This document shows positions 6,751 through 47,417 of a stretch of DNA of 64,000 nt, piece by piece; position 1 is the stretch's first letter; each line of letters begins with the position of its first letter. The position numbers were made by a program, and so were the translations under genes. The notes under the pieces are model-generated. The model saw nothing but the letters and a program-made list of their open reading frames with translations. It had not been told where the DNA came from and ran no database searches. Source of the stretch: Candidatus Zambryskibacteria bacterium RIFCSPLOWO2_02_FULL_51_21 (GTDB lineage Bacteria > Patescibacteriota > Minisyncoccia > Phycocordibacterales > Zambryskibacteraceae); the NCBI GenBank assembly GCA_001824255.1, contig MHWQ01000002.1:393572-457571 (forward strand), read 5' to 3'.

Positions 6751-6757
6751 TTAGAGA

Positions 6758-7402
6758 ATGGCTGCCTCTTCCAATGCAACTCAGGAGTTCGTGCCCATCA
6801 AGGAGGTGCGCGACGGCATCGTCATTTTGAAGGATGGCGGCATGCGCGCCATACTCCTCTGTTCCTCGCTTAACTTCTCGCTCAAAAGCGATGACGAAAG
6901 GAACGCCATCCTCCTGCAGTTCCAGGACTTCCTCAATTCACTCGACTTCTCGGTGGAAATATTGGTCCAGTCGAGGAAGCTCGACATCAGGCCATACCTG
7001 GCTCTCCTTGAAGAGCAGGAAACGAAGCAGACCAATAACCTTTTGAAGATTCAGGTCAGGGAATACATCCAGTTCGTGAAGAAGTTTACCGAGGACGCAA
7101 ATATCATGACCAAGCACTTCTTCATCGTCATACCCTACAGCCCGGCAATCATTTCCGCGGGAAGAGCTGGCAGCTTCATCACCAAACTCGGCGTTGGTGC
7201 GAGCGGCAGCCAGAGCAAGACCTCGGGCAATGGCAGCTTCGACGAGAATAGAAGCCAGCTTGAGGAGCGGATGTCAGTGGTCGAACAGGGTTTGGTGCGC
7301 ACGGGCATACGTGTGGCGCGGCTTGGCACGGAGGAAGTAATCGAACTTTTCTACAAGGCCTTCAACCCCGGCGAGACCGAGAAGCCGATTAAAATGAAAT
7401 AA
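6758..7402 (+). CDS. VirB4/TrbE/CagE-family ATPase, N-terminal domain fragment (separate ORF from the ATPase body).
   Basis: FVPIKEVRDGIVILKDGGMRAILLCSSLNFSL...FLNSLDFSVEILVQSRKLDI resembles the conserved N-terminus of Gram-positive VirB4 homologues. Ends at TAA one nucleotide before the ATG of the next ORF, which is in a different frame. Confidence 0.55.
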   Translation: MAASSNATQEFVPIKEVRDGIVILKDGGMRAILLCSSLNFSLKSDDERNAILLQFQDFLNSLDFSVEILVQSRKLDIRPYLALLEEQETKQTNNLLKIQVREYIQFVKKFTEDANIMTKHFFIVIPYSPAIISAGRAGSFITKLGVGASGSQSKTSGNGSFDENRSQLEERMSVVEQGLVRTGIRVARLGTEEVIELFYKAFNPGETEKPIKMK

Positions 7403-7403
7403 C

Positions 7404-9296
7404 ATGGGAATTTTTGATTCACTTTTTAAAAAGGAGGCAAAGCGAGAAGATATTTCCTCAATTTTACCTAAGGAAATCTTCGAAGCGGGCGCCCTGGAGC
7501 TCAAAGACATCATCGCTCCCTCAGCTCTGAAGGTCTCGCCCAAGGAAATAAACTTGGGCGAGAAAATCCTGCGCAGCTTCTTCGTCATCTCCTATCCGCG
7601 CTATCTCGCCGAGGGCTGGTTCTCGCCCATTATCAATATGGACAAGGTTTTCGACGTCTCGATCTTCGTCCACCCGATTGAAACCTCGAAAGTACTTCGC
7701 CAGTTCCAGAGGAAGGTGGCCGAAGTGCAGTCCCAGATTCACACCAGGGAAGAAAAGGGCCTGGTGCGCGACCCCATGCTCGATGTGGCCTATCAGGACC
7801 TCGAGAACTTGCGCGACCAGCTCCAGCAGGCGCAGGAGAAGCTTTTCGATGTCGGGCTATATATCACCATCTACGGCGACAGCGCCGACGAACTCGACAA
7901 GGTTGAGAGCGAGATTAAGTCAATACTTGAGGCCAAACTCATTTATGTGAAGCCGGCCCTCTTCCAGCAGGAAGAGGGCTACAAATCAACCCTGCCTTTA
8001 GGCAATGACGAACTGAACGTCCACTCCAAACTCAATTCTTCCCCGCTCTCCTCGCTGTTTCCATTCACCTCCTTCGACCTTACTTCGGACAAAGGCATTC
8101 TCTACGGCATAAACAGGCACAACTCTTCGCTTATTCTCTTCGACCGCTTCTCGCTTGAGAACTACAACTCGGTCACCTTCGCCAAGGCGGGCGCCGGCAA
8201 GTCCTACGCCACCAAGCTTGAGATTCTCCGCACGCTCATGTTTGATACTGAGGTTATCGTCATCGACCCGGAGAAAGAGTACGAGTACATGGCCGAGGCG
8301 ACAGGCGGGCGCTACTTCAACATTTCCCTCAATTCCGAACACCACATCAATCCCTTCGACCTGCCCGTGCCGGGACCGGACGAGAGCGCCGCAAACGTCT
8401 TGCGCTCCACCATCATCAACCTGGTGGGCCTCTTCCGCCTCATGATGGGCGGCCTCACCGCCGAGGAAGACGCCATCATCGACCGCGCCATTACCGAAAC
8501 GTATGCGCTCAAAGACATTACTGCCGATTCCGACTTTAGAAACATCGAGCCACCCTTGATGTCTGACTTCGAGCTGGTGCTCTCCGGCATGGAAGGAGGA
8601 GAATCTCTGGCCCAGCGTCTGTCCAAGTACACCAAGGGCACTTGGGCGGGCTTCATCAACAGGCCTTCAAATGTGGATATCAACAGAAAGTTCGTGGTCT
8701 TCTCGCTCCGCGACATGGAAGATGAGCTTAAGCCCATAGCCATGTACATCGTCACGCACTATATCTGGAACACCATCAGAAAAGAGCTTAAGAAGCGCCT
8801 GCTCGTAATCGACGAGGCCTGGTGGATGATGAAGTCCGACGACACCGCCTCTTTCCTCATGGGTCTCGTCAAGAGAGGTAGGAAATATTACCTGGGTGTT
8901 GCCACTGTTACTCAAGATGTAGGCGACTTCCTCAAATCGCCTTACGGCGTGCCTATCATCACCAACTCCTCAATCCAGATGCTTTTGAAGCAGTCACCAG
9001 CAACGATTGACGAACTGCAAAAAACTTTCAATCTTACCGACGAGGAGAAATATCTTCTTTTGGAATCAGATGTTGGAGAAGGAATCTTCTTCGCCGGACT
9101 CAAACATGTGGCTATAAAGAATATTGCTTCGTACACAGAGCATCAAATTATCACCTCCGACCCAGGTCAGATCCTGGCCATAAAGAAGGCAAAGCAAGAC
9201 GCGGCCGAAGACCAGGATGAAGCGCTCATGGCCCAGCGGGAGAAACTGAAGCAGGCCGCCTTAAATCCAAATGCCGGAGAAAAAGGGACTCAGTAG
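7404..9296 (+). CDS. VirB4/TrbE/CagE-family T4SS ATPase (central and C-terminal ATPase domains).
   Basis: Walker A FAKAGAGKSYATK. VIVIDPEKEYEYMAEATGGRYFNISL. Walker B-like LLVIDEAWWMM. Overall VirB4 domain order. Confidence 0.8.
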   Translation: MGIFDSLFKKEAKREDISSILPKEIFEAGALELKDIIAPSALKVSPKEINLGEKILRSFFVISYPRYLAEGWFSPIINMDKVFDVSIFVHPIETSKVLRQFQRKVAEVQSQIHTREEKGLVRDPMLDVAYQDLENLRDQLQQAQEKLFDVGLYITIYGDSADELDKVESEIKSILEAKLIYVKPALFQQEEGYKSTLPLGNDELNVHSKLNSSPLSSLFPFTSFDLTSDKGILYGINRHNSSLILFDRFSLENYNSVTFAKAGAGKSYATKLEILRTLMFDTEVIVIDPEKEYEYMAEATGGRYFNISLNSEHHINPFDLPVPGPDESAANVLRSTIINLVGLFRLMMGGLTAEEDAIIDRAITETYALKDITADSDFRNIEPPLMSDFELVLSGMEGGESLAQRLSKYTKGTWAGFINRPSNVDINRKFVVFSLRDMEDELKPIAMYIVTHYIWNTIRKELKKRLLVIDEAWWMMKSDDTASFLMGLVKRGRKYYLGVATVTQDVGDFLKSPYGVPIITNSSIQMLLKQSPATIDELQKTFNLTDEEKYLLLESDVGEGIFFAGLKHVAIKNIASYTEHQIITSDPGQILAIKKAKQDAAEDQDEALMAQREKLKQAALNPNAGEKGTQ

Positions 9297-9597
9297 TGCA
9301 ACAATCGGTTTGATGACAGGCGTTGCCTTGTTTTATGACGTGCTTCAAATACTTTTTTCCTGGATGGGGCTCGGGTGGTTCATTATTCCCATTGCGTACG
9401 GCCATTTCTGGCTCTGGTTCAGAATGCGGGGATTGAAGTTTTTTACAACAAAGAGAGCCGTCTGGTTCGGCTTCGGCGTTCCGCTTGAAGCACTTACTGC
9501 CGGCATTTTCCCCAGTATAACCGGCAATGTCTTGCGGTCCGCGATGGATTATAAAATCGAGAAGACTCTCCCGACATCGGGTATAATAAAATCATGA
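9271..9597 (+). CDS. Small hydrophobic membrane protein in the T4SS-like operon.
   Basis: 108 aa with 2-3 hydrophobic helices rich in W/F (GLGWFIIPIAYGHFWLWF). Overlaps the VirB4 stop. Confidence 0.4.
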   Translation: MPEKKGLSSATIGLMTGVALFYDVLQILFSWMGLGWFIIPIAYGHFWLWFRMRGLKFFTTKRAVWFGFGVPLEALTAGIFPSITGNVLRSAMDYKIEKTLPTSGIIKS

Positions 9598-10265
9598 GAA
9601 AACTAGTCTTTCTGTTTTTTATCTACTTATTCTTTTCCACCCCAGCCCTTGCCCAGTCTGTTGATATTCTCTGGCAGGGAACGGGCTACATTCCGCCGTT
9701 TTACGAGGGCAAAATGCTTTGGGCCAAGCAGTCAGTCATTACTCTCGTGGCTATTCCGCAAGGATTGGGTAACCCCGCAAACCTTAATTACAAATGGACT
9801 CGTAACGGCACCGTGCTGGGCAACGTCTCCGGCATTGGCAAAAACTCTCTAACCTTCATGGACGCCGTTTTCTCCAAACCCTACACGATAAAGGTTGAGA
9901 TTGTTGACGGGAATGAAGAGACGCGCGCGGAAGCGACACAGGTCATCGCGGCAAGAGACCCCCTGCTACTGGTCTATGAGAATCACCCCTTGTACGGATA
10001 TCTTTTCAATAAAGAGATTGGGGGTGTCTTCAAAATGAACAAGGAGGAGGCCACCTTCACCGCCTTCCCCTTATTCGCACAGCAAAGAGCGGGGGCTTAT
10101 TCCTGGCGGGCCAATAGCGGAGAGCCTTCCGGCGGCAACACTGTCACTTACCGCGCGCCGGAAGGGGCGAGCGGCGTCTCCAGGGTAAACGTAAGTTTCT
10201 CTGATGGCAACGCGATAATGAGGCCTATCGAGCGCAGTTTCTTGATACAATTTGGCAATGAATAA
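9594..10265 (+). CDS. Secreted protein with cleavable signal peptide. Function unknown.
   Basis: MRKLVFLFFIYLFFSTPALA-QS signal peptide. Overlaps neighbours at both ends. Confidence 0.5.
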   Translation: MRKLVFLFFIYLFFSTPALAQSVDILWQGTGYIPPFYEGKMLWAKQSVITLVAIPQGLGNPANLNYKWTRNGTVLGNVSGIGKNSLTFMDAVFSKPYTIKVEIVDGNEETRAEATQVIAARDPLLLVYENHPLYGYLFNKEIGGVFKMNKEEATFTAFPLFAQQRAGAYSWRANSGEPSGGNTVTYRAPEGASGVSRVNVSFSDGNAIMRPIERSFLIQFGNE

Positions 10266-11139
10266 ACTTATTATTTCTATCTTTTTTCTGGCGCTTGCAG
10301 TTCCCGTCCTTGCCCAGGAAGCCAAGCCGACCGACTACACCATGCTTGCTCCCATACCCCAGCTTGCCACGGAGGGAGAGAAGACAAATGCCGTAACGTA
10401 CGTGACGGGTCTCTTCAAGCTCGCCATAGGTCTCGCCGGAGCGCTCGCGGTGGTGATGATTATCTACGCAGGCATCAAATATATGTCCACGGACGCTTTC
10501 AGCGGCAAGGAGGAGGCCAAAGGCGTCATCGAGAACGCCCTCTGGGGCTTGGGGCTGGCAATAGCCGCCTGGCTCATCCTCTATACCATCAACCCGAAGC
10601 TGGTGGAAATAAAATTCGACATAGCACCGCAGCAAATCGCCACGACCACAACAACGCTTGGTGGGGATCTGCCGGGAGGGGGTTGGGGGGGCGGAGGGGG
10701 AATTCTTCCTGGATATCCGCTTAGCCCAGAACAAGTGGCTGAGAACACGCAAATTAGGGATAAACTTAAAAACAACAAACCCTATCCTGTCTTGGTAAAT
10801 AATGACCCTTGCGCGACAGGAGGGACAATCGGGTGCACAAATGTTGTCGGTCTGCCGGACTCAGCCCTCACTAGTGCTAAAATCCTGGCTAATGCGTGCA
10901 AATGCACAATAACAATCACCGGAGGAACGGAGGGCGGTCATTCCAACCATGGACCAGGGAGGGCAGCTTTCGATCTTTCGCCCATTGGAGCTCTGAATAC
11001 TTTTCTCAGTAAAACTAACCCCCAAGCAGCCTTCCCTAGCAATGGTGCAAAAGTAAGAATCGGAACAACCGTTTACACTTTTGAAACCGCGGGAGCGAAT
11101 GGCAGAGCCACCGCTAACCATTGGCATGTAGAGCTTTGA
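10252..11139 (+). CDS. T4SS pilin-like protein (signal peptide plus two hydrophobic helices, as in CPR and Firmicutes conjugative pilins) with a Gly-rich linker and a roughly 170-aa C-terminal extension domain.
   Basis: MAMNKLIISIFFLALAVPVLA-QEA signal peptide. KLAIGLAGALAVVMIIYAGIKYMST...AKGVIENALWGLGLAIAAWLILYTINPKL matches the pilin-like pattern. GGDLPGGGWGGGGGILPG linker. Confidence 0.5.
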   Translation: MAMNKLIISIFFLALAVPVLAQEAKPTDYTMLAPIPQLATEGEKTNAVTYVTGLFKLAIGLAGALAVVMIIYAGIKYMSTDAFSGKEEAKGVIENALWGLGLAIAAWLILYTINPKLVEIKFDIAPQQIATTTTTLGGDLPGGGWGGGGGILPGYPLSPEQVAENTQIRDKLKNNKPYPVLVNNDPCATGGTIGCTNVVGLPDSALTSAKILANACKCTITITGGTEGGHSNHGPGRAAFDLSPIGALNTFLSKTNPQAAFPSNGAKVRIGTTVYTFETAGANGRATANHWHVEL

Positions 11140-11140
11140 T

Positions 11141-12364
11141 ATGAAAAAAACACTTCTAATCTCCGGCGCGGTCATAGCAATACTGCTTCTTGCCTTCTTT
11201 GCGTGGTTTTTTCTCGGCAGAGACAAGACTGTGCCGGCAGGAGAGGCGGTGATGAATCTTCTGCCATTCGGTTCTGGTGAAAATTTAGGTGAATCAGGAA
11301 TCACGAATCAAGAATCAGGAATAGGAATAACAGTTGGGGAAGAAAAAATTTTTGATGAACAGGGCGTGCCTACATCCAACCTTTTCCGCCTATCCGATGC
11401 ATCAGTGGCCGGTATGATTGCTTTCGCTCGTGGCGGACAGACTGTCGTGCGTTTTGTGGAGAGAGCCACCGGCCATATTTACGAAACCGCGCTGCCTAAA
11501 GATAAGGCCCTGGCGCCGTTGGAAAAAAAGAAAATCTCCATCAACACCCTGCCGAAGGTTTACGAGGCCTACTTCCGCCCGGACGGCAATATGGTGCTCC
11601 TACGGATGCTTGAGGACGGCTCTGATGCGCAAAAGAACCTCGTTTTGAACCTTGCGGCCACCACAAGCACTGCCGTGAATGTGCGCGGGGTGCTCGGCAG
11701 TATCGCGGTGGGGCAGGGAAATACTCTTTTCTATACCGAACTGGGGTCGAAAACGGTTGTCTCCTCTCCCTTCGGCGGTACCGTAAAAACTTTATACTCC
11801 TTTCCTTTTACCGACTGGCGAGTTTCCCCGGCCGGCACCGGCCTTCTCCTGGAGGCTAAACCGAGCGCCGAGGCCCCCGGTTTCGCTTATATTCTAAGCG
11901 CTGCCGGCTCGTTAACCAGAATTCTTGGATCTCTTTCCGGTCTTTCCGCAGTCTCCAATGCCGCGGGGACTTCCGTGCTTTATTCATACAATAACGGCAG
12001 TGAGATAAAACTTTTTGCCAGGAATCTCCGCACCGGCGCGGAAGTCGAAATTTCTCCGGCAACACTCGCCGAGAAATGCGTCTGGTCTGCAAAAGAATCC
12101 TCCAAGGTCTTTTGCGGAGCGCCCAATTCCTCCCCTTCGGCAGATGAGCCCGATGGTTGGTATGCCGGGGCAACACACTTTTCTGACTATATCTGGACTT
12201 CAGATTCTATTACTGAGATTTCAAAACTTCTGGCAAGTCCATTGGATGAATTCGGTATAGACATAGACGTTTACAAACCAATGCTTTCTCCAGCCGAAGA
12301 TTATCTTCTCTTCATCAACAAGCGCGATATGTCCTTGTGGGTTCTTAAACTGCCCGGGGCTTAA
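11141..12364 (+). CDS. Membrane-anchored extracytoplasmic protein, probably beta-rich or propeller-like. Last gene of the operon.
   Basis: N-terminal TM KKTLLISGAVIAILLLAFFAWFFLG. 407 aa. Converges on yidC. Confidence 0.5.
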   Translation: MKKTLLISGAVIAILLLAFFAWFFLGRDKTVPAGEAVMNLLPFGSGENLGESGITNQESGIGITVGEEKIFDEQGVPTSNLFRLSDASVAGMIAFARGGQTVVRFVERATGHIYETALPKDKALAPLEKKKISINTLPKVYEAYFRPDGNMVLLRMLEDGSDAQKNLVLNLAATTSTAVNVRGVLGSIAVGQGNTLFYTELGSKTVVSSPFGGTVKTLYSFPFTDWRVSPAGTGLLLEAKPSAEAPGFAYILSAAGSLTRILGSLSGLSAVSNAAGTSVLYSYNNGSEIKLFARNLRTGAEVEISPATLAEKCVWSAKESSKVFCGAPNSSPSADEPDGWYAGATHFSDYIWTSDSITEISKLLASPLDEFGIDIDVYKPMLSPAEDYLLFINKRDMSLWVLKLPGA

Positions 12365-13522: not shown

Positions 13523-14869
13523 ATGACCGACTATAAACAGCTCTGGCAGAAAGTACTCATCGAGATGGAACTGGGGATGTCTAGCGCGAACTTCGCCACT
13601 TGGTTCAAAGATACGAGAATCGTCAAGGAAGAGGGCGGGGTGGTGGTCTTGTCGGTGCCTAATGCCTTCGTTAAAGAGTGGCTTATAACTAAATATCACA
13701 GCGCCATCCTGAGAAGCCTCAGAAATCTTGAAAGTTCGGTCCACGCCATAGAATATGTGGTAAATAAGGAGGAATCGCGCCGCCGTGAGGAGCGCACCGG
13801 CAGAGAAACGGCCAACCGCGAACTGCCATTGCCCGAAATTGAGGTAAATAAGGATGACAACCTTAATCCCCGCTACACCTTCGAGACCTTCGTCATAGGC
13901 CCGTTCAATGAACTGGCCCACGCCGCAGCCCAGGCGGTTATTAAGAAGCCGGGAATCATGTATAACCCGCTCTTTATCTATGGCTCAACCGGCCATGGTA
14001 AAACTCACCTTATCCAGGCAATAGGCAACCACATCAAAACAACCACGCCCGGTAAAAAGGTTTATTACATGACCTCCGAACAATTTGGTCAAGACTGCAT
14101 GAACGCCCTCCAGAACCAGAAAATGAACATTTTCAAAGAGAAATACCGAAAATACGACGTCTTGATAGTTGACGACATTCAATTTTTTTCCGATAAGCAA
14201 AAGTTCCAAGAAGAGCTTTTTCACCTCTTCAACACCCTCTATGACAATAACCGTCAGATTATCTTTTCTTCCGACAAACACCCTCACTTCATTAATGGGC
14301 TTGAGGACCGGCTGAAGTCGCGCCTCTCGGCCGGTATGATTGTCGACATTCCGCCACCGGACAAAGAGTCAAGAATCGCCATTATTTCCGCCAAGGCAAC
14401 CCAGCAGGGCGTAGTCCTTACGCCGGATATTGTGGATTATCTCGCTCATTCCATAAACGGCAACATCCGCGAGCTTGAGGGGGCCGTCAACTCACTCCTC
14501 TGCCAGGCGGAACTTAAGGCTAAGGAAATTACCATGGTTGACGTTAGAAACTACATCAAGAACAACATCAAACCTAAGAGAAGTATCGCGGTAAAGGATG
14601 TGGTGAGAATTATTTCTGACTTCTATAATATAAAAGAGGAGAGTATTTACGAAAAAACCAGGCATAAGGAGGTTATCCGCCCCAGGCAGATCATTATGTA
14701 TATATTGAGAGAAGATTTTAACATCTCCTATCCTTCCATAGGACAGAAATTGGGCGGACGCGACCACACCACCGTCATTCATTCGTGTGAAAAAATAAAA
14801 AATGATATTAAACTTGACCAGACATTGGTGGATGAGGTCAGCCAGATTAGGAACTTAATAACTGTGTAA
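13523..14869 (+). CDS. dnaA: Chromosomal replication initiator protein DnaA.
   Basis: AAA+ Walker A GSTGHGKTHL. Walker B VLIVDDIQF. C-terminal HTH domain (RPRQIIMYILRE...GGRDHTTVIH). Confidence 0.95.
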   Translation: MTDYKQLWQKVLIEMELGMSSANFATWFKDTRIVKEEGGVVVLSVPNAFVKEWLITKYHSAILRSLRNLESSVHAIEYVVNKEESRRREERTGRETANRELPLPEIEVNKDDNLNPRYTFETFVIGPFNELAHAAAQAVIKKPGIMYNPLFIYGSTGHGKTHLIQAIGNHIKTTTPGKKVYYMTSEQFGQDCMNALQNQKMNIFKEKYRKYDVLIVDDIQFFSDKQKFQEELFHLFNTLYDNNRQIIFSSDKHPHFINGLEDRLKSRLSAGMIVDIPPPDKESRIAIISAKATQQGVVLTPDIVDYLAHSINGNIRELEGAVNSLLCQAELKAKEITMVDVRNYIKNNIKPKRSIAVKDVVRIISDFYNIKEESIYEKTRHKEVIRPRQIIMYILREDFNISYPSIGQKLGGRDHTTVIHSCEKIKNDIKLDQTLVDEVSQIRNLITV

Positions 14870-15069: not shown

Positions 15070-16176
15070 ATGAAAATAGAAGCTATTAAAGAACAACTTG
15101 AAGGAGCACTCAGTAAGGCTGATAAAATTGCCGGTAAAAATCAAAGTCTCCCTGTTTTGTCCGGGTTTTATATGGATGCCCGGGATAATCTCCTTACTAT
15201 CAAGGCCACTAATCTTGATTTAGGTATTTCCGTAAGTTTGCCGGTGAAGGTTCTTGAGCCGGGTATAGTGGTGGTGCCAGCCCATATTCTCTCCTCCTTC
15301 ATATCTTCACTTTCTTACGATAAAAACACATCTCTTCAGACTAAAGGCCAGGTTTTAGATATCAAAACTAAAACGACAAAAACAAGCATAAAAACGCTCC
15401 CAAGCGAGGAATTTCCGATTATTCCGGAAATAGGCACCGATGGCGTTTTCTCTCTGCCGGCTCGTGATCTGATATTCGGTTTGAGGTCGGTTATTTATGC
15501 TGCCGCGGTTGGCAGTGTTAAGCCAGAACTCTCATCGGTGCTGATTAAACACGAAGGGGAGTTTCTGATTTTTGCCGCCACCGATTCCTTCCGCCTTGCC
15601 GAGAAAAAAATAAAAGTGAAGAAAGTTCCTCACTTCAAACAAATTCTTATCCCGCAGAAAAACGCGTTGGAAATTATCAAAATATTCGACCAAGGGGATG
15701 AGGATATTTCGATTTCGATAGAAGAGCATCAAATGGCGCTGCGTTCCGGCGGAGTTTATGTCACCTCGCGCATTATCGAGGGCAACTTTCCGGACTATCG
15801 GCAGATTATTCCGAAAGAAGTAAACACCACCGCGACGGTCTTGAAGCAGGATTTAATCAATTCACTCAAAACCAGCCTGATTTTCTCAGACTCCTTCAAC
15901 CAGCTTTCCTTAAGACTCGCGCCTAAGGAAAAGAAGTTTGAAATGGAATCAAAAAATTCCTCAATTGGCGAAAGCACTCAAAACATCCAGGTGGCAGCTA
16001 TGGAGGGTAAGGATATTTTCATCAGCGTAAATCATCGCTATTTCACCGACTGCTTCCAGTCCCTAATAACGGACAGCCTCTCCCTCTCTTTCTCCGGAGA
16101 GCAGAAGCCGATTGTCGTTAAGGGTGTCGGTGACCAGAGCTTCCTCTATCTCGTGATGCCTATGAACCAATCATGA
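15070..16176 (+). CDS. dnaN: DNA polymerase III beta sliding clamp.
   Basis: 368 aa, three-domain clamp length. N-terminal MKIEAIKEQLEGALSKADKIAGK pattern. Located immediately after dnaA. Confidence 0.9.
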   Translation: MKIEAIKEQLEGALSKADKIAGKNQSLPVLSGFYMDARDNLLTIKATNLDLGISVSLPVKVLEPGIVVVPAHILSSFISSLSYDKNTSLQTKGQVLDIKTKTTKTSIKTLPSEEFPIIPEIGTDGVFSLPARDLIFGLRSVIYAAAVGSVKPELSSVLIKHEGEFLIFAATDSFRLAEKKIKVKKVPHFKQILIPQKNALEIIKIFDQGDEDISISIEEHQMALRSGGVYVTSRIIEGNFPDYRQIIPKEVNTTATVLKQDLINSLKTSLIFSDSFNQLSLRLAPKEKKFEMESKNSSIGESTQNIQVAAMEGKDIFISVNHRYFTDCFQSLITDSLSLSFSGEQKPIVVKGVGDQSFLYLVMPMNQS

Positions 16177-20394: not shown

Positions 20395-20889
20395 TATCTT
20401 CGAGTTCTTCGATTAATTTTTCTAATGCCTTTGAATCTTCCTCGGAAATTTTTACAGTCGTTGTGGGTTGTAAGTTGTTAGTTGTTGGTTCTCGTCTGAA
20501 TGCCCAGGCCGCCGAGCCGGGCGCCGCAAGCGAGAAGCCGTGCTGAGAAAGAATGAATTTTACTTCCTGGGCCGCCTTGTTTCGGTTTGAAGTGAGCGCC
20601 TCGATAATAAGGGCCGAGCCGCCTGGCCCGTAGGCTTCGTAAGTTATATGGTCAAGCTGTTCGGCTTCGGAGCCGGAACCTTTCTTAACCGCGCGCTCGA
20701 TGTTGTCTGCTGGCATGTTGTATTCGCGGGCTTTGTCTATGGCGGCGCGAAGCACGGGCGAATTGACATCGCCCTTAACCTGCCTTGATGCGGTCGAAAT
20801 GAGCCGGGCCATCTTCGAAAACATTTTTGACTTGGCCGCGTCGGTGCCTTCCTTCTTTCTCTTAATCTTAGACCATTTGTTGTGTCCGC

Positions 20890-24263: not shown

Positions 24264-24593
24264 ATGAAAGCCACCGTCGTAGCGCTACAGGGGGAACTCG
24301 GCTCGGGCAAGACCACTTTTGCCCAGGCGTTCGGTAAGGTCATGGGGGTAAGGGAATTCATGCCCTCTCCCACGTTTGTAATCATGAAAGTTTACGATAT
24401 AGATTTCCACGGATTTAAAAAACTGATTCACATAGACGCTTACCGTCTGGAGAAAGAGGAAGAGCTCCTGAATCTCGGCTGGGCGAAGATTGCCGAAGAG
24501 CCGGAGAACCTGATTCTTATCGAGTGGCCGGAGAACGTCGAAGGATTGATACCCAAAGACGCGAAAAGAATCCAATTCAAACATGAAAGATAA
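24264..24593 (+). CDS. tsaE: tRNA threonylcarbamoyladenosine biosynthesis protein TsaE (short P-loop form).
   Basis: QGELGSGKTTFAQAFGK P-loop followed by SPTFVIMKVY, characteristic of TsaE/YjeE. Confidence 0.7.
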   Translation: MKATVVALQGELGSGKTTFAQAFGKVMGVREFMPSPTFVIMKVYDIDFHGFKKLIHIDAYRLEKEEELLNLGWAKIAEEPENLILIEWPENVEGLIPKDAKRIQFKHER

Positions 24594-26940
24594 GAAGCGC
24601 TTAATTCTTCTCGATTCCCACGCGATTATCCACCGCGCTTATCACGCGCTGCCGGAATTCAGCGCCTCATCGACTGGCGAGCCAACGGGCGCTCTTTACG
24701 GTTTAGTAGCTATGCTGATAAAAATTGTGAATGAATTGAAGCCGGACTACATCGTGGCCGCTTTCGACGAATCGGGGCCGACCTTCCGGCACGAAGCGGC
24801 GGCGAGTTATAAGGCGGGCCGCAAGGAAAATGAAGCAAACCTGAATCTTCAGCTCGAGCGGGCGAGAGACATTTTCAAAGTCTTTGGCATACCGGTTTAT
24901 TCGCTGCAGGGATTCGAAGCCGACGATATCATCGGTACTATCGTTCATAAATTGAAAATTGAAAATTCTAAATTGGAAATTGTAATTGCTTCCGGCGACA
25001 TGGATACCATGCAGCTTGTAGAAGATAGGAAGGTAATGGTCTACACACTCAAAAAAGGGCTCAACGACACCATTCTTTACGATGAGAAAAAGGTGGTCGA
25101 GAGATTTGGCTTCGAACCGAAGAAACTTATCGATTACAAAGGTCTTCGCGGCGACCCATCGGACAATATCGTTGGTGTAAAGGGAATAGGAGAGAAGGGC
25201 GCGACGTCCTTAATTCAAGAATTCGGCACGATTGAAAATATTTATAAAAACATCAAGAAGGTGAAGCCAGAGAGACTGAAAAAACTTCTGGAGGAAGGAG
25301 AAGAAGAGGCGCTTTTCTCGAAAACGCTTGCCACCATACGTCCAGACGCGCCGATTGATTTCAAATTGCCGAAAGTGTGGAGAGAAAATTTCAAACTAGA
25401 TGACGTGCTCGAACTTTTCAAAACTCTCGGCTTCAGAACTTTGAGCGAGAGAGTGAAGAAGCTGGGCGGTTCCGCGGAAGAATCTTTCAAAAAGCTTTCT
25501 GGTGTCGCCTCTGGCGAGCATGGCCAGGCTGTTTTTCAGGATTCTTCCGCTGCGCCGCTATGTTTGGCACTTTGGGTTATAGATTCAAATATTACCGCAC
25601 CGACGGTTGAAGATGTACTGGATTTTACCAAAGCAAAAGATTTGAAAGAAGCGAAAAAAGTCATCGAAGCGGAGCTTGATAAGAGAAAGGTTAGAAAAGT
25701 TTTCGAAGAAATAGAGAAACCCCTCATTCCTATTGTCGAGAAGATGAACAAAACGGGCATTAAGGTAGACAAAAAAATTCTCGCCGGCCTGGCGGGCAAG
25801 TATCACAAAGAACTTTCCCGTCTGGAGAAGGAAATTTGGAAAGAGGCCGGAGAAGAATTCAATATCAATTCGACCAAGGTTCTCGGCAATATCCTCTTTA
25901 CCAAACTTGCTCTTGCCGGCACGCGGCAGAAGAAAACGCCCGGTGGCGCTCTCTCGACCAGGGAATCCGAGCTTGAGAAGCTCCGCGAGAAGCACAAGAT
26001 TATCGGGCTTATCCTCGATTACCGCGAGCTCTCGAAACTCCTCTCCACTTACATCGACGCCATACCGCCTCTTCTCGACAAGAATTCACGTCTGCACTCA
26101 ACCTTCCTCCAAAACGGCGCCGTCACCGGCAGAATGGCTTCAAACAATCCCAACCTTCAGAATATTCCCAATAAAACCGAGCTTGGCCGGGCTATACGGC
26201 ATGCTTTTATCGCTGAGAAAGGATTTAAGCTCGTTTCTCTCGATTACTCGCAGATAGAGCTCCGCCTAGCGGCCGTCCTTTCTGGCGACCAGAAGCTTAT
26301 CGAGATATTCAAGAAGGGCGAGGATGTTCATGCCGGTGTCGCCTCAAGGGTTTTCAAGGTGAAGCCGGAGGAAGTGGATAAGGCCATGCGCATCAAGGCG
26401 AAGACTATAAACTTCGGCATCCTTTACGGCATGGGGGTGACCGCTTTGCAGAAAAATCTCGGCACCGACAGAAAGGAGGCGCAGGAGTTTTACAATAAAT
26501 ATTTCAGCACTTTCACCGGCCTCGCGGCTTATCTCGACAAGGTCAAGGCCGAGGCGGAGCGCAAGGGGTACACGGAAACTATGTTTGGCCGAAGGCGCTA
26601 CTTCACCGGCTTCCGCTCGCCCCTGCCTTACATCCGCGCTCAGGCCGAGAGGATGGCTATCAACGCGCCGCTCCAGGGTACGCAGGCCGATATCATCAAG
26701 ATTGCCATGAAGAAAATCGATGATTATATAAAGAGGAATGGCGAAAGCGGCAAGGTGAGGCTGCTTCTCCAGGTCCACGACGAGCTGGTGTTTGAAGTTT
26801 CTGAAGAACTGGTAGAGGAGGCGGCCAAAAATTTCAAGAAAATCATGGAGACGGTCATCCCGGAGAGCGAACTTAAGGACGTACCTGTCGTCGCCGAAGC
26901 GCACGCAGGTGATAATTGGGGAGAAATGCAAAAGATATGA
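24583..26940 (+). CDS. polA: DNA polymerase I (5'-3' exonuclease plus polymerase domains).
   Basis: 5'-nuclease N-terminus (LILLDSHAIIHRAYHAL). Pol A motifs (DYSQIELR, KTINFGILYGM, QVHDELVFE). Confidence 0.95.
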   Translation: MKDKKRLILLDSHAIIHRAYHALPEFSASSTGEPTGALYGLVAMLIKIVNELKPDYIVAAFDESGPTFRHEAAASYKAGRKENEANLNLQLERARDIFKVFGIPVYSLQGFEADDIIGTIVHKLKIENSKLEIVIASGDMDTMQLVEDRKVMVYTLKKGLNDTILYDEKKVVERFGFEPKKLIDYKGLRGDPSDNIVGVKGIGEKGATSLIQEFGTIENIYKNIKKVKPERLKKLLEEGEEEALFSKTLATIRPDAPIDFKLPKVWRENFKLDDVLELFKTLGFRTLSERVKKLGGSAEESFKKLSGVASGEHGQAVFQDSSAAPLCLALWVIDSNITAPTVEDVLDFTKAKDLKEAKKVIEAELDKRKVRKVFEEIEKPLIPIVEKMNKTGIKVDKKILAGLAGKYHKELSRLEKEIWKEAGEEFNINSTKVLGNILFTKLALAGTRQKKTPGGALSTRESELEKLREKHKIIGLILDYRELSKLLSTYIDAIPPLLDKNSRLHSTFLQNGAVTGRMASNNPNLQNIPNKTELGRAIRHAFIAEKGFKLVSLDYSQIELRLAAVLSGDQKLIEIFKKGEDVHAGVASRVFKVKPEEVDKAMRIKAKTINFGILYGMGVTALQKNLGTDRKEAQEFYNKYFSTFTGLAAYLDKVKAEAERKGYTETMFGRRRYFTGFRSPLPYIRAQAERMAINAPLQGTQADIIKIAMKKIDDYIKRNGESGKVRLLLQVHDELVFEVSEELVEEAAKNFKKIMETVIPESELKDVPVVAEAHAGDNWGEMQKI
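24949..24987 (+). repeat. Copy 1 of an intragenic AT-rich repeat element (GAAAATTGAAAATTCTAAATTG core) in-frame inside polA. It encodes KIENSKLEI.
   Basis: A 22-nt run is identical to the reverse complement of 41621-41654 in mpg and related to 29054-29086 in fpg. Confidence 0.7.
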
Positions 26941-28667: not shown

Positions 28668-29522
28668 TTATTTAAAAAGTTTTTGATGAATGGGGCAAAA
28701 ATGCGCGGAGCGCTCGCCTACCACAATTCTTTTAATAACGCCGCCGTCGTTTTTTCCACAGGATTTTCCCGTGCGTCTGTAAGCTCGGTGGTGGTCTTGG
28801 AACTTTCCGCGCTCTCCCTTAATATTCCTATAATCCGACATCGAGTCTCCGCCGAAGTTGATTCCTGCTTTCAAAACTTCTTTCATCGCGGCAAACATCG
28901 GTTTCATATTCTTGAGCGGAATTTTTCCAACCAAGGAAGTCGGATGTACTCCCGCACGCCACAAAATTTCGTCTGAATAAATATTGCCGATGCCCGCAAT
29001 AAGCGACTGGTCCATGAGAGCTTGCTTGATTTTCGCCTTCGGGCGCTTATGTAATTGAGAATTGAAAATTGAGAATTGAAAATTTTTCTCCAGCGGTTCT
29101 GGACCCAGATGCTCAAGATGGAAACTTTTCTCCAGTTCGCTTGTTTTGGCGAGAGTTACTTTCGCAAACTTTCGGATATCGGAAAGCGCAAGCTCTTTGC
29201 CATTGTCCAGTTTGAATATAAGACGGACATAAGGGTAATCCGGCCGGTCATAGACGAAGTGTCCGGTCATCTTCATATGGACGATTATCGTATAACCGTT
29301 CGAAAGATGGATTAAAACATTTTTTGCCCGCCTTTCGGCTTTCAAAATTTTTTGCCCCGTGACGAGTCTCTTGAATTTTTTAAAGAAGGCCGGGTCTTTG
29401 ATATTGTCTTTGCCCGCGTGGTAAGCGCTCTTGTAAGTAGTCGAAACGCTTTTTACAGCACGGCCTTTTACAGTTTTGTTTAATCCGTTAACTGTTGTTT
29501 GAACCTCGGGCAGTTCAGGCAT
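28668..29522 (-). CDS. mutM: Formamidopyrimidine-DNA glycosylase (Fpg/MutM), with a short AT-rich in-frame insertion.
   Basis: MPELPEVQTT catalytic N-terminus. C-terminal zinc finger (CGKNDGGVIKRIVVGERSAHFCPIHQ). Confidence 0.9.
   Translation of the reverse strand: MPELPEVQTTVNGLNKTVKGRAVKSVSTTYKSAYHAGKDNIKDPAFFKKFKRLVTGQKILKAERRAKNVLIHLSNGYTIIVHMKMTGHFVYDRPDYPYVRLIFKLDNGKELALSDIRKFAKVTLAKTSELEKSFHLEHLGPEPLEKNFQFSIFNSQLHKRPKAKIKQALMDQSLIAGIGNIYSDEILWRAGVHPTSLVGKIPLKNMKPMFAAMKEVLKAGINFGGDSMSDYRNIKGERGKFQDHHRAYRRTGKSCGKNDGGVIKRIVVGERSAHFCPIHQKLFK
29054..29086 (-). repeat. Copy 3 (opposite orientation) of the intragenic AT-rich repeat element inside fpg. It encodes FQFSIFNSQ.
   Basis: AATTGAGAATTGAAAATTGAGAATTGAAAATT. 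Two AATTGAAAATT units with a 3-nt spacer, the reverse-complement arrangement of the mpg copy. Confidence 0.65.
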
Positions 29523-33958: not shown

Positions 33959-34219
33959 ATTTTTTATTAATGTCGTTTAGATTTTCCAAACACCATATAT
34001 TATCCCATACTTTTTAGGGGAGTGCGACAGGTTCTCTTGGCGGGGACGATGCCCGGAACTTTGAACTCAAAGCACGGCTCAAACCCTGCCTTGCCGGCAG
34101 GCAGGTCGAGGATCTTGATAAAAGTATACAGAAACTACGAGCTATCTACAAAGTTCATCCTGAGTGGTTTGAGACGCCAAAACCAAAATCTGATAAGGGG
34201 AAAAATGAACTGACCTATA

Positions 34220-34968: not shown

Positions 34969-37260
34969 TTAGATCAATTCGTTAATTTTTTTGTCTTGAT
35001 CTTCGGCTATCTTAGCTACTGCTTGTAAGTGTTTTTCTTTCTCCGATTCCTTTGCGTCCAACTCTTTTATAATCTTCTTCTGAATTTCAACCGATGGCAA
35101 AGGAATTTCAACTATGCGCATTATATCTTTATTTAATGTTTTTCCTTTTGTTGCCCTTTGACTATATGTAGAGTAATCCAATCTGGGCAACAGGTAGTAA
35201 AGATATTTTGTAAGAACTCGGTTATCTTTCGGAACAATGCCTGCTATTGCTTCATTTGTGTAGAGTTCCTTCGCGGTTATAGCCACCTTGCCAATTGTAA
35301 GCTTAAAACTGAAGAGGAGAGTATCTATTGGCAATAATTTAACATTGGATTCTTTTACTCCCTTGTCGGTAATTTTTTCTTCAGTATTAGAAATATACAT
35401 TTGACGATTCATATCCCTGATTTTTACCCACAAATTTTTGCCACCATACAAACTCAAGTCTTTACGAGAGGGAGTCCCACCAATAACGATATCGCAAACC
35501 TCACCTAATTTAACAAAGTCAGTTGTTTTCTTGCCTTGCTTTCGATATTTATCCATCGAAAGTTTATACTTCTCCGCTACAATTTTTTTGAAATCAACCG
35601 AAAATGAATGGTTGGAATTTTCTTTGTCCTTCCAAATTTGCCTTAGCAAAATTAAATCATTTGCCTCAATCGGCGATCTTCCTAATTTGCTTCCTGTTTT
35701 TTTAAAGCCGTCTTCTTGAACATCAAAAAACCAAACATTTTGAGTTTGCCTGCCTTTTTCAAAAATAAGAATGCTTGTCGGTTGTCCGGTATAGGGCTTA
35801 AAGACGAATTCGTGCAACTTAATAACCGCGACAACATTACAGGTTTCTAAGAGGATTTTTCTTATTTTGATATACTCTGAATTTTCATCGAACAACAGAC
35901 CCTCTGGAACAACAACACCGGCAATTCCACCATTATCTAAAGAATCAATAATGTGCTTCAAGAAAACGGGATTTGCGTCCTCGCTGTTAAATCCATAAAA
36001 TGCGCTATAGTCTGTTGTTTGAGAAAAGGGGAAATTTGTTAAAACAACATTGTAATCACCTTTAACTGGATTTTTTAAACTATCCATTTGCTTAATGTTG
36101 TTGTGCCCATCGCCAATGATAATCATATTCATTTTGGCGATTTTGGCTGTGCCAGAGATCTCTCTGCCATATACCGTTTTCTCTTTCAAAATTTGTAGGT
36201 TTTCCTTAGTTTGTTTGCATTTATTCTTGATATGTCTAAATGCTTCAATCAAAAATCCTCCTGTGCCACAAGCAGGATCGTAAATCTTATCTCCAAATTT
36301 TGGATCAACTAGATCAACAATCAACTTAACAATATGTCGTGGCGTGAAGTATTCTCCCAAGTCAGTCCCAACGCTAACCGAATTTTTGAGAAAGTATTCA
36401 AATGCATCACCCTTTATATCAGAGTCAGCATCTAATAATTTCAGGGAAGAAAGCTTATCAACTATTTTCTTTAAGTTCTCGGGGCTTTTTATTAATAAAT
36501 TTTGCTGAAAAACATCTCCGCTGTGGTTATACTTATTAACTAACCTAGGCAAAATAATATTGTTAACATATTCGAGCATTCGATCTGGATCGAGCTTATA
36601 GAAACTTTCCCAACAATACTTTTTTTCAAGTATTCTCTGCTCGCCACTATTTTCTCTATCCTCTTCAATTTCACTAATGAGTTTTAAGAATAAGAGATTA
36701 GAAAATTCAGCAAATCTTTCTATTCCTTCCCTAATGCCTTCTTTACGAAGCAAATCATTTGCCTCAGAGAATATTTTTATAAGCTCTCTCTTGGTGTAAG
36801 TTATTTTTTCCGGAGAATACAATTGAGAGCCATGCTCTAAAAATTTAAGTAATTGTTTTTCCGAAATAAATTCCGTGATGATCTGGTCGTCTAACTTTAA
36901 ATTGCTTTTACTTCGAACATCGTGCGATTCAACAATTGAACCGTCAGTAACAAAAATGATATCCAAACCCAAAGGTTCGGCATAGAGATTAATCGCTTGA
37001 TTCAAGGCCTGCCTAAGGCTTTGCCCACTTCTCTTAGCTTCAATTATTCCTATTGGGTCGTCAGTTCCAGATTTATAAAGAACATAGTCTGGATTCTTGC
37101 CTTTAAATTTTTTATTCTGTTCTGTGGTTTTTGCTCTCTCTGTAAACACATTGCAGTCAGGTGAAGTTTCGTCCGTGTTCCAACCCAAATTAGCAAGAAT
37201 CAAATCAATCTTCTTTCTTGTTGCACTCTCTAATGTTTTGGTAAAAATTGGTGTAGACAT
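34969..37260 (-). CDS. Single-chain restriction-modification enzyme. It has an N-terminal PD-(D/E)xK nuclease, an N6-adenine gamma-class methyltransferase and a C-terminal HsdS-like target-recognition domain (Type IIG/IIB-like).
   Basis: NPDYVLY...IIEAKRSG (PD-ExK). Motif I IYDPACGTGGFLIEA. Motif IV TNFPFS. C-terminal TRD LGEVCDIVIGGTPSRKD...KNLWVKIRDM typical of Type I S subunits. Confidence 0.8.
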   Translation of the reverse strand: MSTPIFTKTLESATRKKIDLILANLGWNTDETSPDCNVFTERAKTTEQNKKFKGKNPDYVLYKSGTDDPIGIIEAKRSGQSLRQALNQAINLYAEPLGLDIIFVTDGSIVESHDVRSKSNLKLDDQIITEFISEKQLLKFLEHGSQLYSPEKITYTKRELIKIFSEANDLLRKEGIREGIERFAEFSNLLFLKLISEIEEDRENSGEQRILEKKYCWESFYKLDPDRMLEYVNNIILPRLVNKYNHSGDVFQQNLLIKSPENLKKIVDKLSSLKLLDADSDIKGDAFEYFLKNSVSVGTDLGEYFTPRHIVKLIVDLVDPKFGDKIYDPACGTGGFLIEAFRHIKNKCKQTKENLQILKEKTVYGREISGTAKIAKMNMIIIGDGHNNIKQMDSLKNPVKGDYNVVLTNFPFSQTTDYSAFYGFNSEDANPVFLKHIIDSLDNGGIAGVVVPEGLLFDENSEYIKIRKILLETCNVVAVIKLHEFVFKPYTGQPTSILIFEKGRQTQNVWFFDVQEDGFKKTGSKLGRSPIEANDLILLRQIWKDKENSNHSFSVDFKKIVAEKYKLSMDKYRKQGKKTTDFVKLGEVCDIVIGGTPSRKDLSLYGGKNLWVKIRDMNRQMYISNTEEKITDKGVKESNVKLLPIDTLLFSFKLTIGKVAITAKELYTNEAIAGIVPKDNRVLTKYLYYLLPRLDYSTYSQRATKGKTLNKDIMRIVEIPLPSVEIQKKIIKELDAKESEKEKHLQAVAKIAEDQDKKINELI

Positions 37261-41155: not shown

Positions 41156-41557
41156 ATGAAGAAAGGATTCAAAGACAATATTGAGAAATTAACCGTGGGA
41201 AATACCGATTTCCGCCGCGTGCTTTATACCGGTGAGCGCTCGCAACTGGTGCTTATGTCGCTTAGGCCGGGCGAGGAAATTGGCGCCGAAGTGCACGAGG
41301 ATAATGACCAATTCTTCCGCTTCGAGAAGGGACGTGGCAAGGTCATCATTGATAATACAAGCTACGATGTCTCTGACGGCGACGCGGTAGTGGTGCCCCG
41401 CGGCGCCGAACACAACGTTATCAATGCTTCCCAGACAGAAGAGCTCAAGCTCTACACCATCTACTCTCCGCCGCATCACGCCGATGGCATCGTCCGCGCC
41501 ACCAAGGAAGAAGCGGTTCAGAACGAGGCCGAGTTCGATGGAGTTACGACTGAATAA
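41156..41557 (+). CDS. Cupin-domain protein.
   Basis: GEEIGAEVHEDNDQFFRFEKGRGKVII...DGDAVVVPRGAEHNVIN cupin motifs 1 and 2. Confidence 0.7.
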   Translation: MKKGFKDNIEKLTVGNTDFRRVLYTGERSQLVLMSLRPGEEIGAEVHEDNDQFFRFEKGRGKVIIDNTSYDVSDGDAVVVPRGAEHNVINASQTEELKLYTIYSPPHHADGIVRATKEEAVQNEAEFDGVTTE

Positions 41558-42056
41558 AACGATAAGGTTTGTTTGCCCAAATTTTACCAGCATATGCCAC
41601 TCCAACTCTTGGCATACGCAAAATTTTCAATTTAGAATTTTCAATTTTCGAATCAGATTCAATCCACAAACCAGTTTTCTTTCCCAACTTCTTGCCATTC
41701 AAACTTTTATCTATTTTAAAAAACTTTGTTAATCGCGCGGGGCCAGTTATATTTTCCGTACCGCGTATAAGGACGGCGGCGGGGAAATCTTTTCCTTCGG
41801 TCACGATGTTTAGCATCCAATGCATACCGTAGGTAAAATAGACATAAATCGTTCCAGCTTCGGCAAACATCGGGGTATTACGCGGGGTTTTGCCACGCGA
41901 AGAATGGCAGGCTAGGTCGTGCGGGCCGACATATGCTTCCGTCTCGGTGATTTTCCCCCTCCATATCTTGCCGTTAATCTTGCGCACCAGATATTTGCCC
42001 GGAAGCTCGCGGGCCACGGTCAGGGTTTTCCTGTCGAAAAATGAATGAGATAACAT
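41544..42056 (-). CDS. mpg: DNA-3-methyladenine glycosylase (Mpg/AAG family).
   Basis: RKTLTVARELPGKYLVRKINGKIWRGKITETEAYVGPHDLACHSSRGKTPRN is the AAG family core. Start set at MLSHSFF (42056) rather than the upstream ORF-track Met. Confidence 0.8.
   Translation of the reverse strand: MLSHSFFDRKTLTVARELPGKYLVRKINGKIWRGKITETEAYVGPHDLACHSSRGKTPRNTPMFAEAGTIYVYFTYGMHWMLNIVTEGKDFPAAVLIRGTENITGPARLTKFFKIDKSLNGKKLGKKTGLWIESDSKIENSKLKILRMPRVGVAYAGKIWANKPYRFIQS
41621..41654 (-). repeat. Copy 2 of the intragenic AT-rich repeat element inside mpg. It encodes KIENSKLKI.
   Basis: AAATTTTCAATTTAGAATTTTCAATTTTCGAAT on the plus strand. Its reverse complement shares 22 contiguous nt with the polA copy. Confidence 0.7.
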
Positions 42057-46851: not shown

Positions 46852-46881
46852 TCTTAATGCGTATTCTTATCGATTTTTGGC

Positions 46882-46913
46882 AAAAAAACAAGCCGGCGCC
46901 TCAGGCGCCGGCT
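46882..46913 (-). terminator. Rho-independent terminator downstream of folA (minus strand).
   Basis: 10-bp GC-rich stem AGCCGGCGCC/GGCGCCGGCT with 4-nt loop, followed on the minus strand by TGTTTTTTTG. Confidence 0.6.
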
Positions 46914-46918
46914 GTAAT

Positions 46919-47413: not shown

Positions 47414-47417
47414 TTTC

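Follow-up and report, generated by a model that had tools for sequence, protein, structure and literature searches.

The window analyzed here, a stretch of 64,000 nucleotides (nt) from the genome of a Candidatus Zambryskibacteria bacterium (Patescibacteria, or candidate phyla radiation, CPR; all positions are in window coordinates), contains three genes, polA, fpg and mpg, each of which carries within its open reading frame (ORF) a short AT-rich array of 7-nt units. The best database matches are from Candidatus Zambryskibacteria and other Parcubacteria, and several groundwater assemblies from the Rifle aquifer contain the identical window sequence. Pfam domains detected in the products of the host genes are DNA_pol_A and the 5'-3' exonuclease (polA), Fapy_DNA_glyco and H2TH (fpg), and Pur_DNA_glyco (mpg), in agreement with an earlier reading of the letters alone (henceforth the original prediction), which had taken all three hosts for DNA-metabolism enzymes. 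The genes and their arrays are as follows:

24583..26940, plus strand: host gene polA, 785 aa, 5'-nuclease and family A polymerase
24949..24987, plus strand: heptamer array (solo arm) in polA, AAATTGA AAATTGA AAATTCT AAATTGG AAATTGT AATTG
28668..29522, minus strand: host gene fpg, 284 aa
29053..29086, repeat on the plus strand, gene on the minus strand: heptamer array in fpg, (AATTGAGAATTGAA) x2.3, read NFQFSIFNSQ, overlapping the predicted helix 150-157
41544..42056, minus strand: host gene mpg, 170 aa from the Met shared with orthologs and public annotations (the mechanical ORF extends to 42191)
41620..41654, minus strand: heptamer array (solo arm) in mpg, GAAAATT GAAAATT CTAAATT GAAAATT TTG

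Examination of these tracts with Tandem Repeats Finder reveals a period of 7 at 24949-24982 in polA (4.9 copies), 29053-29084 in fpg (4.6) and 41622-41649 in mpg (4.0), with the fpg array additionally forming a perfect 14-nt repeat of 2.3 copies. Perfect units number only 2-2.7 per tract (only 2 in polA). Within the proteins the arrays lie at residue 123 of 785 (polA), 147 of 284 (fpg) and 136 of 170 (mpg). The polA array translates to KLKIENSKLEIVI, which constitutes residues 123-135 of the 785-aa Pol I and lies in its 5'-nuclease domain, after the EADD motif and before GDMD. The mpg array translates to SKIENSKLKIL; in the 170-aa glycosylase this is the loop that joins predicted strands 130-133 and 145-148. 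With three arrays in its 64 kb, the window has about 1 per 20 kb. The string AATTGAAAATT, with at most one mismatch, has 11 matches in the window against 4.4 expected, 9 of which fall inside the three sites. Period 7 is seen in 8 of the 22 tandem-repeat rows of the window, and other 7-nt arrays also lie within its ORFs, namely (GAATCAG)n at 11291-11328, read ESGITNQESGIGI, (CCAAATC)n at 6197-6222, read PNPKSQIPN, and (GTTGTTA)n at 20467-20490 in a YebC-like gene, read EPTTNNLQP.

The 22-mer GAAAATTGAAAATTCTAAATTG occurs exactly twice in the window, at 24954-24975 on the plus strand in polA and at 41628-41649 on the minus strand in mpg, and none of 100 dinucleotide-preserving shuffles gave a match to it; the full polA/mpg match comprises 28 nt with one mismatch (27/28, 96% identity). 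The fpg copy at 29057-29086 is 87% complementary to the mpg site across 30 nt. The original prediction was correct in its coordinates and strings, in the 22 nt shared by polA and mpg, in the reverse-complement arrangement within fpg, and in the peptides KIENSKLEI and KIENSKLKI, all frames being open (that of fpg reads NFQFSIFNSQ). Since the chance that two KIENSKL-coding genes agree in these codons is ~9e-4 at the codon usage of this genome (GC3 0.57), the identity between polA and mpg resides in the DNA and not in the peptide. This agrees with the view, put forward in the original prediction, that ordinary drift is not involved; nor is a shared peptide. The sites belong to a repeat family at the level of the DNA, with copies in both orientations that are translated in frame. 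That KIENSKL[EK]I might instead be a selected short linear peptide, for instance an interaction tag of repair enzymes, is very improbable. The same peptide is indeed present in polA and mpg and recurs in their orthologs; however, fpg, on the opposite strand, gives an unrelated peptide, the codon identity is far above what a peptide would require, most copies of the repeat are non-coding, the middle residue of KIENxKL varies freely (S, C, F, Y, R, W), and there are orthologs without the peptide or with unrelated inserts. The unit had also been described as near-palindromic, which does not hold for the window copies: a hairpin or palindrome within them was rejected, as the three fold at -2.0 to -3.3 kcal/mol, the level of shuffled sequence. 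Antisense pairing, conceivable according to the original prediction, is possible on thermodynamic grounds: predicted duplexes between the fpg mRNA and those of polA and mpg reach -25.5 to -27.8 kcal/mol, a trivial consequence of their complementarity.

Comparison of 120 polA orthologs showed that 82 have a baseline loop between EADD and GDMD, 21 the heptamer-derived KIENxKLEI, 11 a hairpin 'KGRT...GSTL' insert and 6 other sequences. This segment is 30 aa long in the window polA against 29 aa in most orthologs (e.g. EKLKKDKNTEIII), a net gain of 1 aa; an element-free ortholog, P0004, reads CTGAAAAAGGACAAAAATACGGAAATC. Because the E. coli and Taq Pol I segments are of baseline length, the heptamer state is the derived one. 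When the loop is masked and polA is placed on a neighbor-joining tree, the heptamer state, found in 21 sequences, requires at least 12 changes, compared with ~20 for shuffled labels. Pairs of polA that are ~94% identical outside the loop bear differing elements; one of these pairs shows 91% DNA identity across 2349 nt with indels solely in the loop, where AAATTGAAAATTGAAAATTGTAAA is swapped for GCAAAAGGTCGAACC, with TTGGAAATT following both. In the closest relative of the window polA (87% identical), a perfect inverted repeat of 13 nt, AAGGCAAGACCTT...AAGGTCTTGCCTT, precedes the tail TAAATTGGAAATT, which equals the right end of the heptamer array. In other lineages these polA and mpg loops are occupied by heptamer arrays with differing units, and G+C-rich palindromes are nested within heptamer arrays of other polA and mpg genes.

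The same presence/absence polymorphism, which the original prediction had proposed as a check, is seen at the mpg site. Among 119 mpg orthologs, the loop is at its 13-aa baseline in 45 and is 15 aa long with KIENxKLKI in 39; different inserts, likewise recurring and of 16-24 aa, are present in 33, the window protein with its 15 aa showing a net gain of 2 aa over baseline (a metagenome scan for mpg loci returned chiefly distant, element-free orthologs, which served as the baseline rather than for close comparison). In the AlphaFold model the mpg element forms a loop between two strands and is the lowest-confidence block of the model. The fpg site is of a different kind: its length is identical in 109 of 109 orthologs (net 0 aa), NFQFxxFxxQ is present in 56 of the 109 and related sequences such as VFKFEVFKSQV in the rest, and the AlphaFold model places the element on helix 150-157, with an invariant F148 and near-invariant F153 and Q156. 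Hence the expectation of loop insertions of 9-12 aa is replaced by net changes of +1 (polA), +2 (mpg) and 0 aa (fpg, in a helix). The polA and mpg loops are hot spots for the gain and loss of several mini-repeat families.

One of these other families is a hairpin mini-element with a 13-nt perfect inverted repeat and a loop of ~10 nt, read KGRTFKDSQGSTL or QGKTFKDSQGLAF, which sits at the same loops in other Parcubacteria (polA P0001, P0002, P0038, P0074, P0077, P0102, P0108 and P0119; mpg P0235; locus L210, 6001-8361); short one-arm forms of it (KGRTLE) resemble slippage derivatives. The mpg loop has at least four further recurring inserts, PTSLKLRRAKVKI, SPSPKASAHRRKI, AAPAVASSEGGKTKLKI and SDLSARKGGSANPSGGKI (orthologs P0131-P0232), which probably translate other G+C-rich repeat families. 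A second mini-repeat family within the window is the 20-nt G+C palindrome CCTGCCTGCCGGCAGGCAGG, found at 48960-48979, 50721-50740, 34086-34105 and 57229-57248; it is read LPAGRQ in frame within serine hydroxymethyltransferase (SHMT) and arginyl-tRNA synthetase (ArgRS), another ORF has a degenerate version (LPSGSR), and one copy is intergenic. PAGR-type sequences are nested in the heptamer arrays of polA and mpg from other lineages.

Beyond these orthologs, the 27-nt core AAAATTGAAAATNNTAAATTGRAAATT is present at at least 120 loci in species-representative genomes (one genome per species). By record title, about half of the matches listed belong to CPR of many classes and about a third to Saprospiraceae and other Bacteroidota, with one Saprospiraceae metagenome-assembled genome (MAG) carrying more than 10 copies; the remaining listed matches include a few in Nitrospirae and Planctomycetota contigs of 57-64% GC, in which the core forms an A/T island. 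Flanks are unrelated between loci, conservation being limited to ATTG plus the 27-mer, and individual arrays are 21-63 nt long. Among the matches listed, 30 of 121 lie well inside long ORFs and about 90 of 121 are intergenic. Most of the listed coding copies use the KIENxKLKI or NFQFxIFNFQ frames, with several minus-strand copies in a neighboring open frame. A perfect (AAAATTG)n, as read from its sequence, includes TGA in every forward frame, and it is for this reason that coding copies carry the variant unit. Pfam-confirmed hosts elsewhere include: 1) a class-I aminoacyl-tRNA synthetase, the CCA-adding enzyme, Fmt (twice), TsaD and a MiaB-like enzyme; 2) PrmC and several methyltransferases; 3) RecO (twice) and UvrD; 4) a GT4 glycosyltransferase, an amylase and others. 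By inspection, two Fpg genes among the listed coding matches carry the array at the same site as the window fpg. The notion that DNA-metabolism genes are the target is not upheld, since the hosts elsewhere are diverse and about three-quarters of the listed copies are intergenic; no DNA-repair-specific system is indicated. A phage origin was rejected, with only 2 matches in 2.9 million viral contigs, both in giant-virus bins, as was a reading of the core as a sigma-70 promoter, for which the TTGAAA-to-TAAATT spacing of ~11 nt (counted by eye) is unsuitable.

A looser search recovered dozens of loci with a (CAATTTT)n array and, 30-140 nt away, an (AAAATTG)n array of opposite orientation. These paired arrays are imperfect palindromes of 110-150 nt that fill CPR intergenic spacers, fold at -20 to -41 kcal/mol and have the termini AATTTTCAATT...AATTGAAAATT, with inner blocks in common that include AAACAATGATTTAATG, CATTGAAAATT and CATTGAAAATTnnTTG. 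Their outer ends abut gene boundaries; the same inverted pairing of arrays is seen at the G+C-rich loci of Nitrospirae and Planctomycetota. When 14 full elements were compared with the window by nhmmer, only the three known sites were recovered, and only through the terminal 30-48 nt of an arm. As full elements match them by the terminal arm only, the window copies can be understood as solo arms of a palindromic family. The MITE- or REP-like nature (miniature inverted-repeat transposable element; repetitive extragenic palindrome) suggested in the original prediction is in part substantiated, by palindromic full-length forms in other genomes, and in part not, the window copies being unfolded single arms. 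An extended arm sequence that includes an inner block is also found inside an ORF, that of a glycosyltransferase (locus L013), along with nested G+C hairpins; a full element in frame within this gene was considered and rejected, as the DNA places the full palindrome just upstream and only the extended arm inside. In several Bacteroidota MAGs (L007, L006, L019, L021, L055, L099) the heptamer array is embedded in longer repeated flanks, and in a Bacteroidetes MAG (L007, 1057-2995) arrays flank a gene for an IS4-like DDE transposase, a possible autonomous partner or preferred target.

The position of the intergenic copies is regular: for the matches listed, the 3' end is mostly at -2 to +30 nt from the neighboring gene, with a spacer of ~90-150 nt on the opposite side, and 35 same-strand (+,+) gene pairs have a copy upstream of the start of the next gene, most within 30 nt. 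This regularity, together with conservation of the 27-nt core across phyla amid unrelated flanks and its persistence as an A/T island in genomes of 57-64% GC, could point to a functional nucleic-acid signal, kept through binding or use and accumulating in genes where coding constraints allow. The candidates are a binding site for a regulatory or nucleoid protein, a DNA uptake sequence, a hairpin acting as translation leader or terminator, and a module for RNA-RNA pairing (the predicted fpg-polA/mpg mRNA duplexes being of -25 to -28 kcal/mol); taken jointly, we consider them unlikely. DNA uptake sequences occur about once per kb, compared with 3 arrays per 64 kb here; copies are found in both orientations and in very different contexts, and no binding factor is known. 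Rfam detects only tRNAs in the window and nothing in five full-element loci, so that no Rfam family matches. Furthermore, a site-specific function of the intragenic copies is hard to reconcile with how quickly they are gained, lost and replaced at orthologous sites. In favor of the signal, uptake sequences of Haemophilus and Neisseria likewise occupy permissive coding sites, reportedly favoring genome-maintenance genes (PMC2817400).

The mutability of the arrays is apparent from a near-clonal contig, k141_175123 (ENA ERZ27254767), which matches window positions 14993-52056 (~37 kb) with one single-nucleotide polymorphism (SNP) and two indels only. Both indels fall in the arrays and both shift the frame:

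24949..24955, plus strand: one unit, AAATTGA, missing from polA in k141_175123 (7 nt), splitting polA into ORFs of 131 aa and 646 aa
41622..41635, minus strand: two units, 14 nt (CTAAATTGAAAATT, gene strand), missing from mpg in k141_175123, a frameshift

The frameshifted mpg encodes a 152-aa product with the wrong tail FAYAKSWSGICW. By exact-sequence protein lookup, intact polA (785 aa) is present on 12 contigs, mpg (170 aa) on 13 and fpg on 17, and the 646-aa form of polA and the 152-aa form of mpg on one contig each, the same one. In other assemblies the sequence either matches the window exactly over 10-19 kb or deviates by 1 SNP, and a near-clonal pair from a related species has no indel. 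An assembly artefact is an unlikely source of the 7- and 14-nt deletions, because the junction k-mers must occur in reads; the repeated words are no longer than 19 nt, below any de Bruijn k-mer, an argument by reasoning. The arrays are the most mutable positions seen. A further near-identical assembly, GCA_001823795.1 (L124), differs from the window across 19.3 kb by a single G-to-T at 10014, and its gene calls have 140-aa and 76-aa genes in place of a 223-aa gene (ORF 9594-10265).

Such alleles call to mind contingency loci, in which case the 7-nt arrays would be phase-variation switches under selection, toggling the polA 5'-nuclease, Mpg and perhaps Fpg between off and on so as to produce a mutator state that can be reversed. 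The unit length, not a multiple of 3, would suit such a role, as would the fact that the sole two indels in the ~37-kb comparison (-7 in polA, -14 in mpg) are both frameshifts, and the location of all three window copies in repair or replication genes. Still, we consider this improbable, and slightly more so than the functional signal. Exact-sequence lookup places the intact forms on 12-13 contigs but the shifted ones on a single contig; neither alleles with added units nor independent ON/OFF combinations were found among the contigs, and the related near-clonal pair lacks length changes. The tracts are short and imperfect, the mpg tract near the C-terminus and the fpg tract in a conserved helix are atypical for switches, and the same arrays occur in many non-repair genes and mostly between genes. 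The slippage data do not show reversible switching. If such a switch were nevertheless real, reversible inactivation of the Pol I 5'-nuclease and of base-excision glycosylases, through the loss or regain of 7-nt units, would provide a heritable on/off mutator state in mismatch-repair-poor, host-dependent bacteria, and loss of the Pol I flap nuclease would itself raise repeat instability, which would explain the joint shifts in polA and mpg on one contig.

Slippage raises a further alternative, that each array arose in place from A/T-rich Lys/Ile/Asn/Phe codons by pure microsatellite birth, the resemblance among arrays being convergence with no copying. Consistent with this are the tandem 7-nt make-up, the existence of slippage alleles, the coexistence of perfect and variant arrays, the differing-unit heptamer arrays in window ORFs and at the same polA and mpg loops of other lineages, and the dispersed heptameric repeats near ORF ends in Xanthomonas and Nostoc (PMC4692102). 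We nonetheless judge it improbable, to about the same degree as the functional signal, given that polA and mpg share an imperfect 28-mer that includes the CT variant unit, that at least 120 loci have the same imperfect 27-mer, and that non-heptamer inner arm blocks are common to intergenic and intragenic copies of different genomes. Moreover, the element-free polA of P0004 (CTGAAAAAGGACAAAAATACGGAAATC) has little proto-repeat to expand.

Starting from the observed repeat structure, its distribution, its turnover at orthologous sites, its structural context and the two slippage alleles, we propose that the probable explanation is a dispersed DNA repeat with heptamer arms, similar to MITEs and to the Rickettsia palindromic elements (RPEs), that is tolerated at permissive coding sites and prone to slippage. 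The three window sites would be solo arms of this AT-rich family, with AAAATTG as the consensus unit and AAAATTG-AAAATTN-TAAATTG-AAAATT as a common stop-free variant; each full CPR copy is bounded by a (CAATTTT)n arm on one side and by an (AAAATTG)n arm on the opposite side. The intragenic arms presumably descend from, or were copied from, palindromic elements; copying could be by transposition in trans or by short-patch templated repair or conversion. Within genes, copies would persist only in stop-free frames (forward KIENxKL[KE]I; reverse NFQFxIFNxQ or a neighboring frame) and only at tolerant sites, such as the Lys/Ile-rich surface loops of polA and mpg; the fpg helix may be tolerant in that the conserved F, F and Q codons already suit the repeat. 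Array length would change by slipped-strand mispairing, other mini-repeats would overwrite the arrays, and the frameshift hot spots would be a side effect. The repeat thus conceived appears to act as selfish or neutral DNA and not as a protein tag, with selection probably serving as a filter on the intragenic copies.

Several observations weigh against this proposal. There is no full palindrome in the 64-kb window, the link between solo arms and full elements resting on other genomes. Inspection by eye of the ends of about a dozen full elements showed no consistent target-site duplication, although the AATT termini obscure short ones; the CPR elements gave no full-element site with both an empty and a filled form, and the intervals between distant array pairs, which contain housekeeping genes, yielded no transposase partner in CPR. 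A net length change of 0 to +2 aa fits simple insertion poorly and calls for either later trimming or a replacement-type event. The pattern AAAATTGAAAATNNTAAATTGRAAATT forced the variant unit, so that the census is biased toward the variant, and perfect arrays also exist outside the scanned motif alongside variant ones. Several third-party MAGs may carry an incorrect taxon label, as in the case of L114 (labelled Bdellovibrionales), which shares flanks with L057 (labelled Moraniibacteriota). Finally, 5 of the 30 listed coding matches are Fpg, RecO or UvrD, which is somewhat high, and there may be a mild bias toward DNA-metabolism genes, as all three window copies also lie in them.

The RPEs, as outlined in a summary of Ogata et al. 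2000 (PMC10969869), are in-frame, MITE-like elements of ~100-150 bp. To the extent of that summary, the family described here resembles them in consisting of multi-copy palindromes of ~100-150 bp in the small, gene-dense genome of a host-dependent bacterium, located both between genes and in frame in unrelated housekeeping genes at fold-tolerant sites. It differs from the RPEs so described in having arms that are AT-rich 7-nt tandem arrays slipping in length, in that the window copies are ~30-nt solo arms adding 0 to +2 aa, as against RPE insertions of ~50 aa, and in having a core that spans many CPR classes and other phyla, with several mini-repeat families alternating at one loop. Like MITEs and RPEs, the family has many copies with a common consensus, unrelated flanks and in-frame presence in unrelated genes; terminal inverted repeats, which in such elements bound roughly 100-300 bp, are found in other genomes around 110-150 nt and not at the three window copies. 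Elements of the REP/BIME type (BIME, bacterial interspersed mosaic element) are 20-40 nt G+C-rich extragenic hairpins associated with RAYT transposases, unlike the AT-rich elements with unfolded solo copies seen here.

The cyanobacterial short tandemly repeated repetitive (STRR) heptamers are comparable repeats. As in these, the same 7-nt unit is found at many loci, its copy number changes by whole units and its copies are mainly intergenic near ORF ends, the window copies being the intragenic minority. Dispersed heptameric simple-sequence repeats are also known as GGGAATC in Xanthomonas and GGGGAYT in Nostoc (PMC4692102), where a 7-nt unit likewise occurs at many loci, typically in about four units, in inverted pairs and near ORF starts and stops; however, those repeats are G-rich (G-quadruplex candidates), under-represented in coding sequence and genus-restricted (PMC4692102), whereas the repeats here are AT-rich, in frame in conserved genes, and have a core common to several phyla. 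Contingency loci of Haemophilus, Neisseria and Helicobacter share with the arrays intragenic tandem repeats, a unit that is not a multiple of 3 and frameshift alleles. They have long perfect tracts, usually near the 5' end or promoter, in contrast to the short, imperfect tracts of 2-2.7 perfect units here, which lie in genes for housekeeping enzymes and not in surface or restriction genes, and whose variants are on one contig. DNA uptake sequences of Neisseriaceae and Pasteurellaceae occur in both orientations and settle, in particular frames, where the protein is permissive and weakly conserved (PMC2817400, PMC2397512), and in Neisseria a bias toward genome-maintenance genes has been reported (PMC2817400). 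The arrays resemble them as a DNA-level motif in both orientations at permissive protein parts in particular frames, but uptake sequences are 9-12 nt, lineage-specific and non-tandem, whereas the present core is a tandem of 27-30 nt at about 1 per 20 kb, is common to several phyla, and in its full copies forms long palindromes.

A search of the open-access literature by sequence string and topic returned nothing relevant to CPR, and the combination of AT-rich heptamer arms, solo arms in conserved housekeeping genes, a cross-CPR core and replacement by other mini-repeats at the same loops was not found described there. If the proposed explanation is correct, CPR genomes hold at least one, and apparently several, mini-repeat families in surface loops of conserved housekeeping proteins, where they are swiftly replaced. 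This would bear on the evolution of loops of essential proteins in reduced genomes and on the origin of dispersed heptameric repeats in bacteria. It would also affect gene and pseudogene calling in MAGs, as 7-nt slippage splits real genes, and the alignment and phylogeny of marker proteins.

Other regions of the window have features of their own. A conjugation or type IV secretion-like cluster at 338-12364 (PrgI, TraC-like, a TraG/VirB4-type ATPase and a weak type IV secretion pilin match) adjoins yidC-rnpA-rpmH, dnaA (13523-14869) and dnaN (15070-16176), the likely vicinity of the replication origin. At 34969-37260 a 763-aa single-chain restriction-modification-type protein combines a weak HSDR_N match with N6_Mtase and Methylase_S; it lies in a low-GC island (34-38 kb; 0.37-0.40 vs ~0.49 elsewhere), which suggests its horizontal acquisition. 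A compact nucleotide-salvage and thymidylate block at 45582-51549 encodes dCMP deaminase, a HIT protein, dihydrofolate reductase (DHFR), ThyA, SHMT, dUTPase and ArgRS. In the closest relative (L210, 862-1707) a gene for an RVT_1 reverse transcriptase, absent from the equivalent region of the window, adjoins the YebC-RuvB block.

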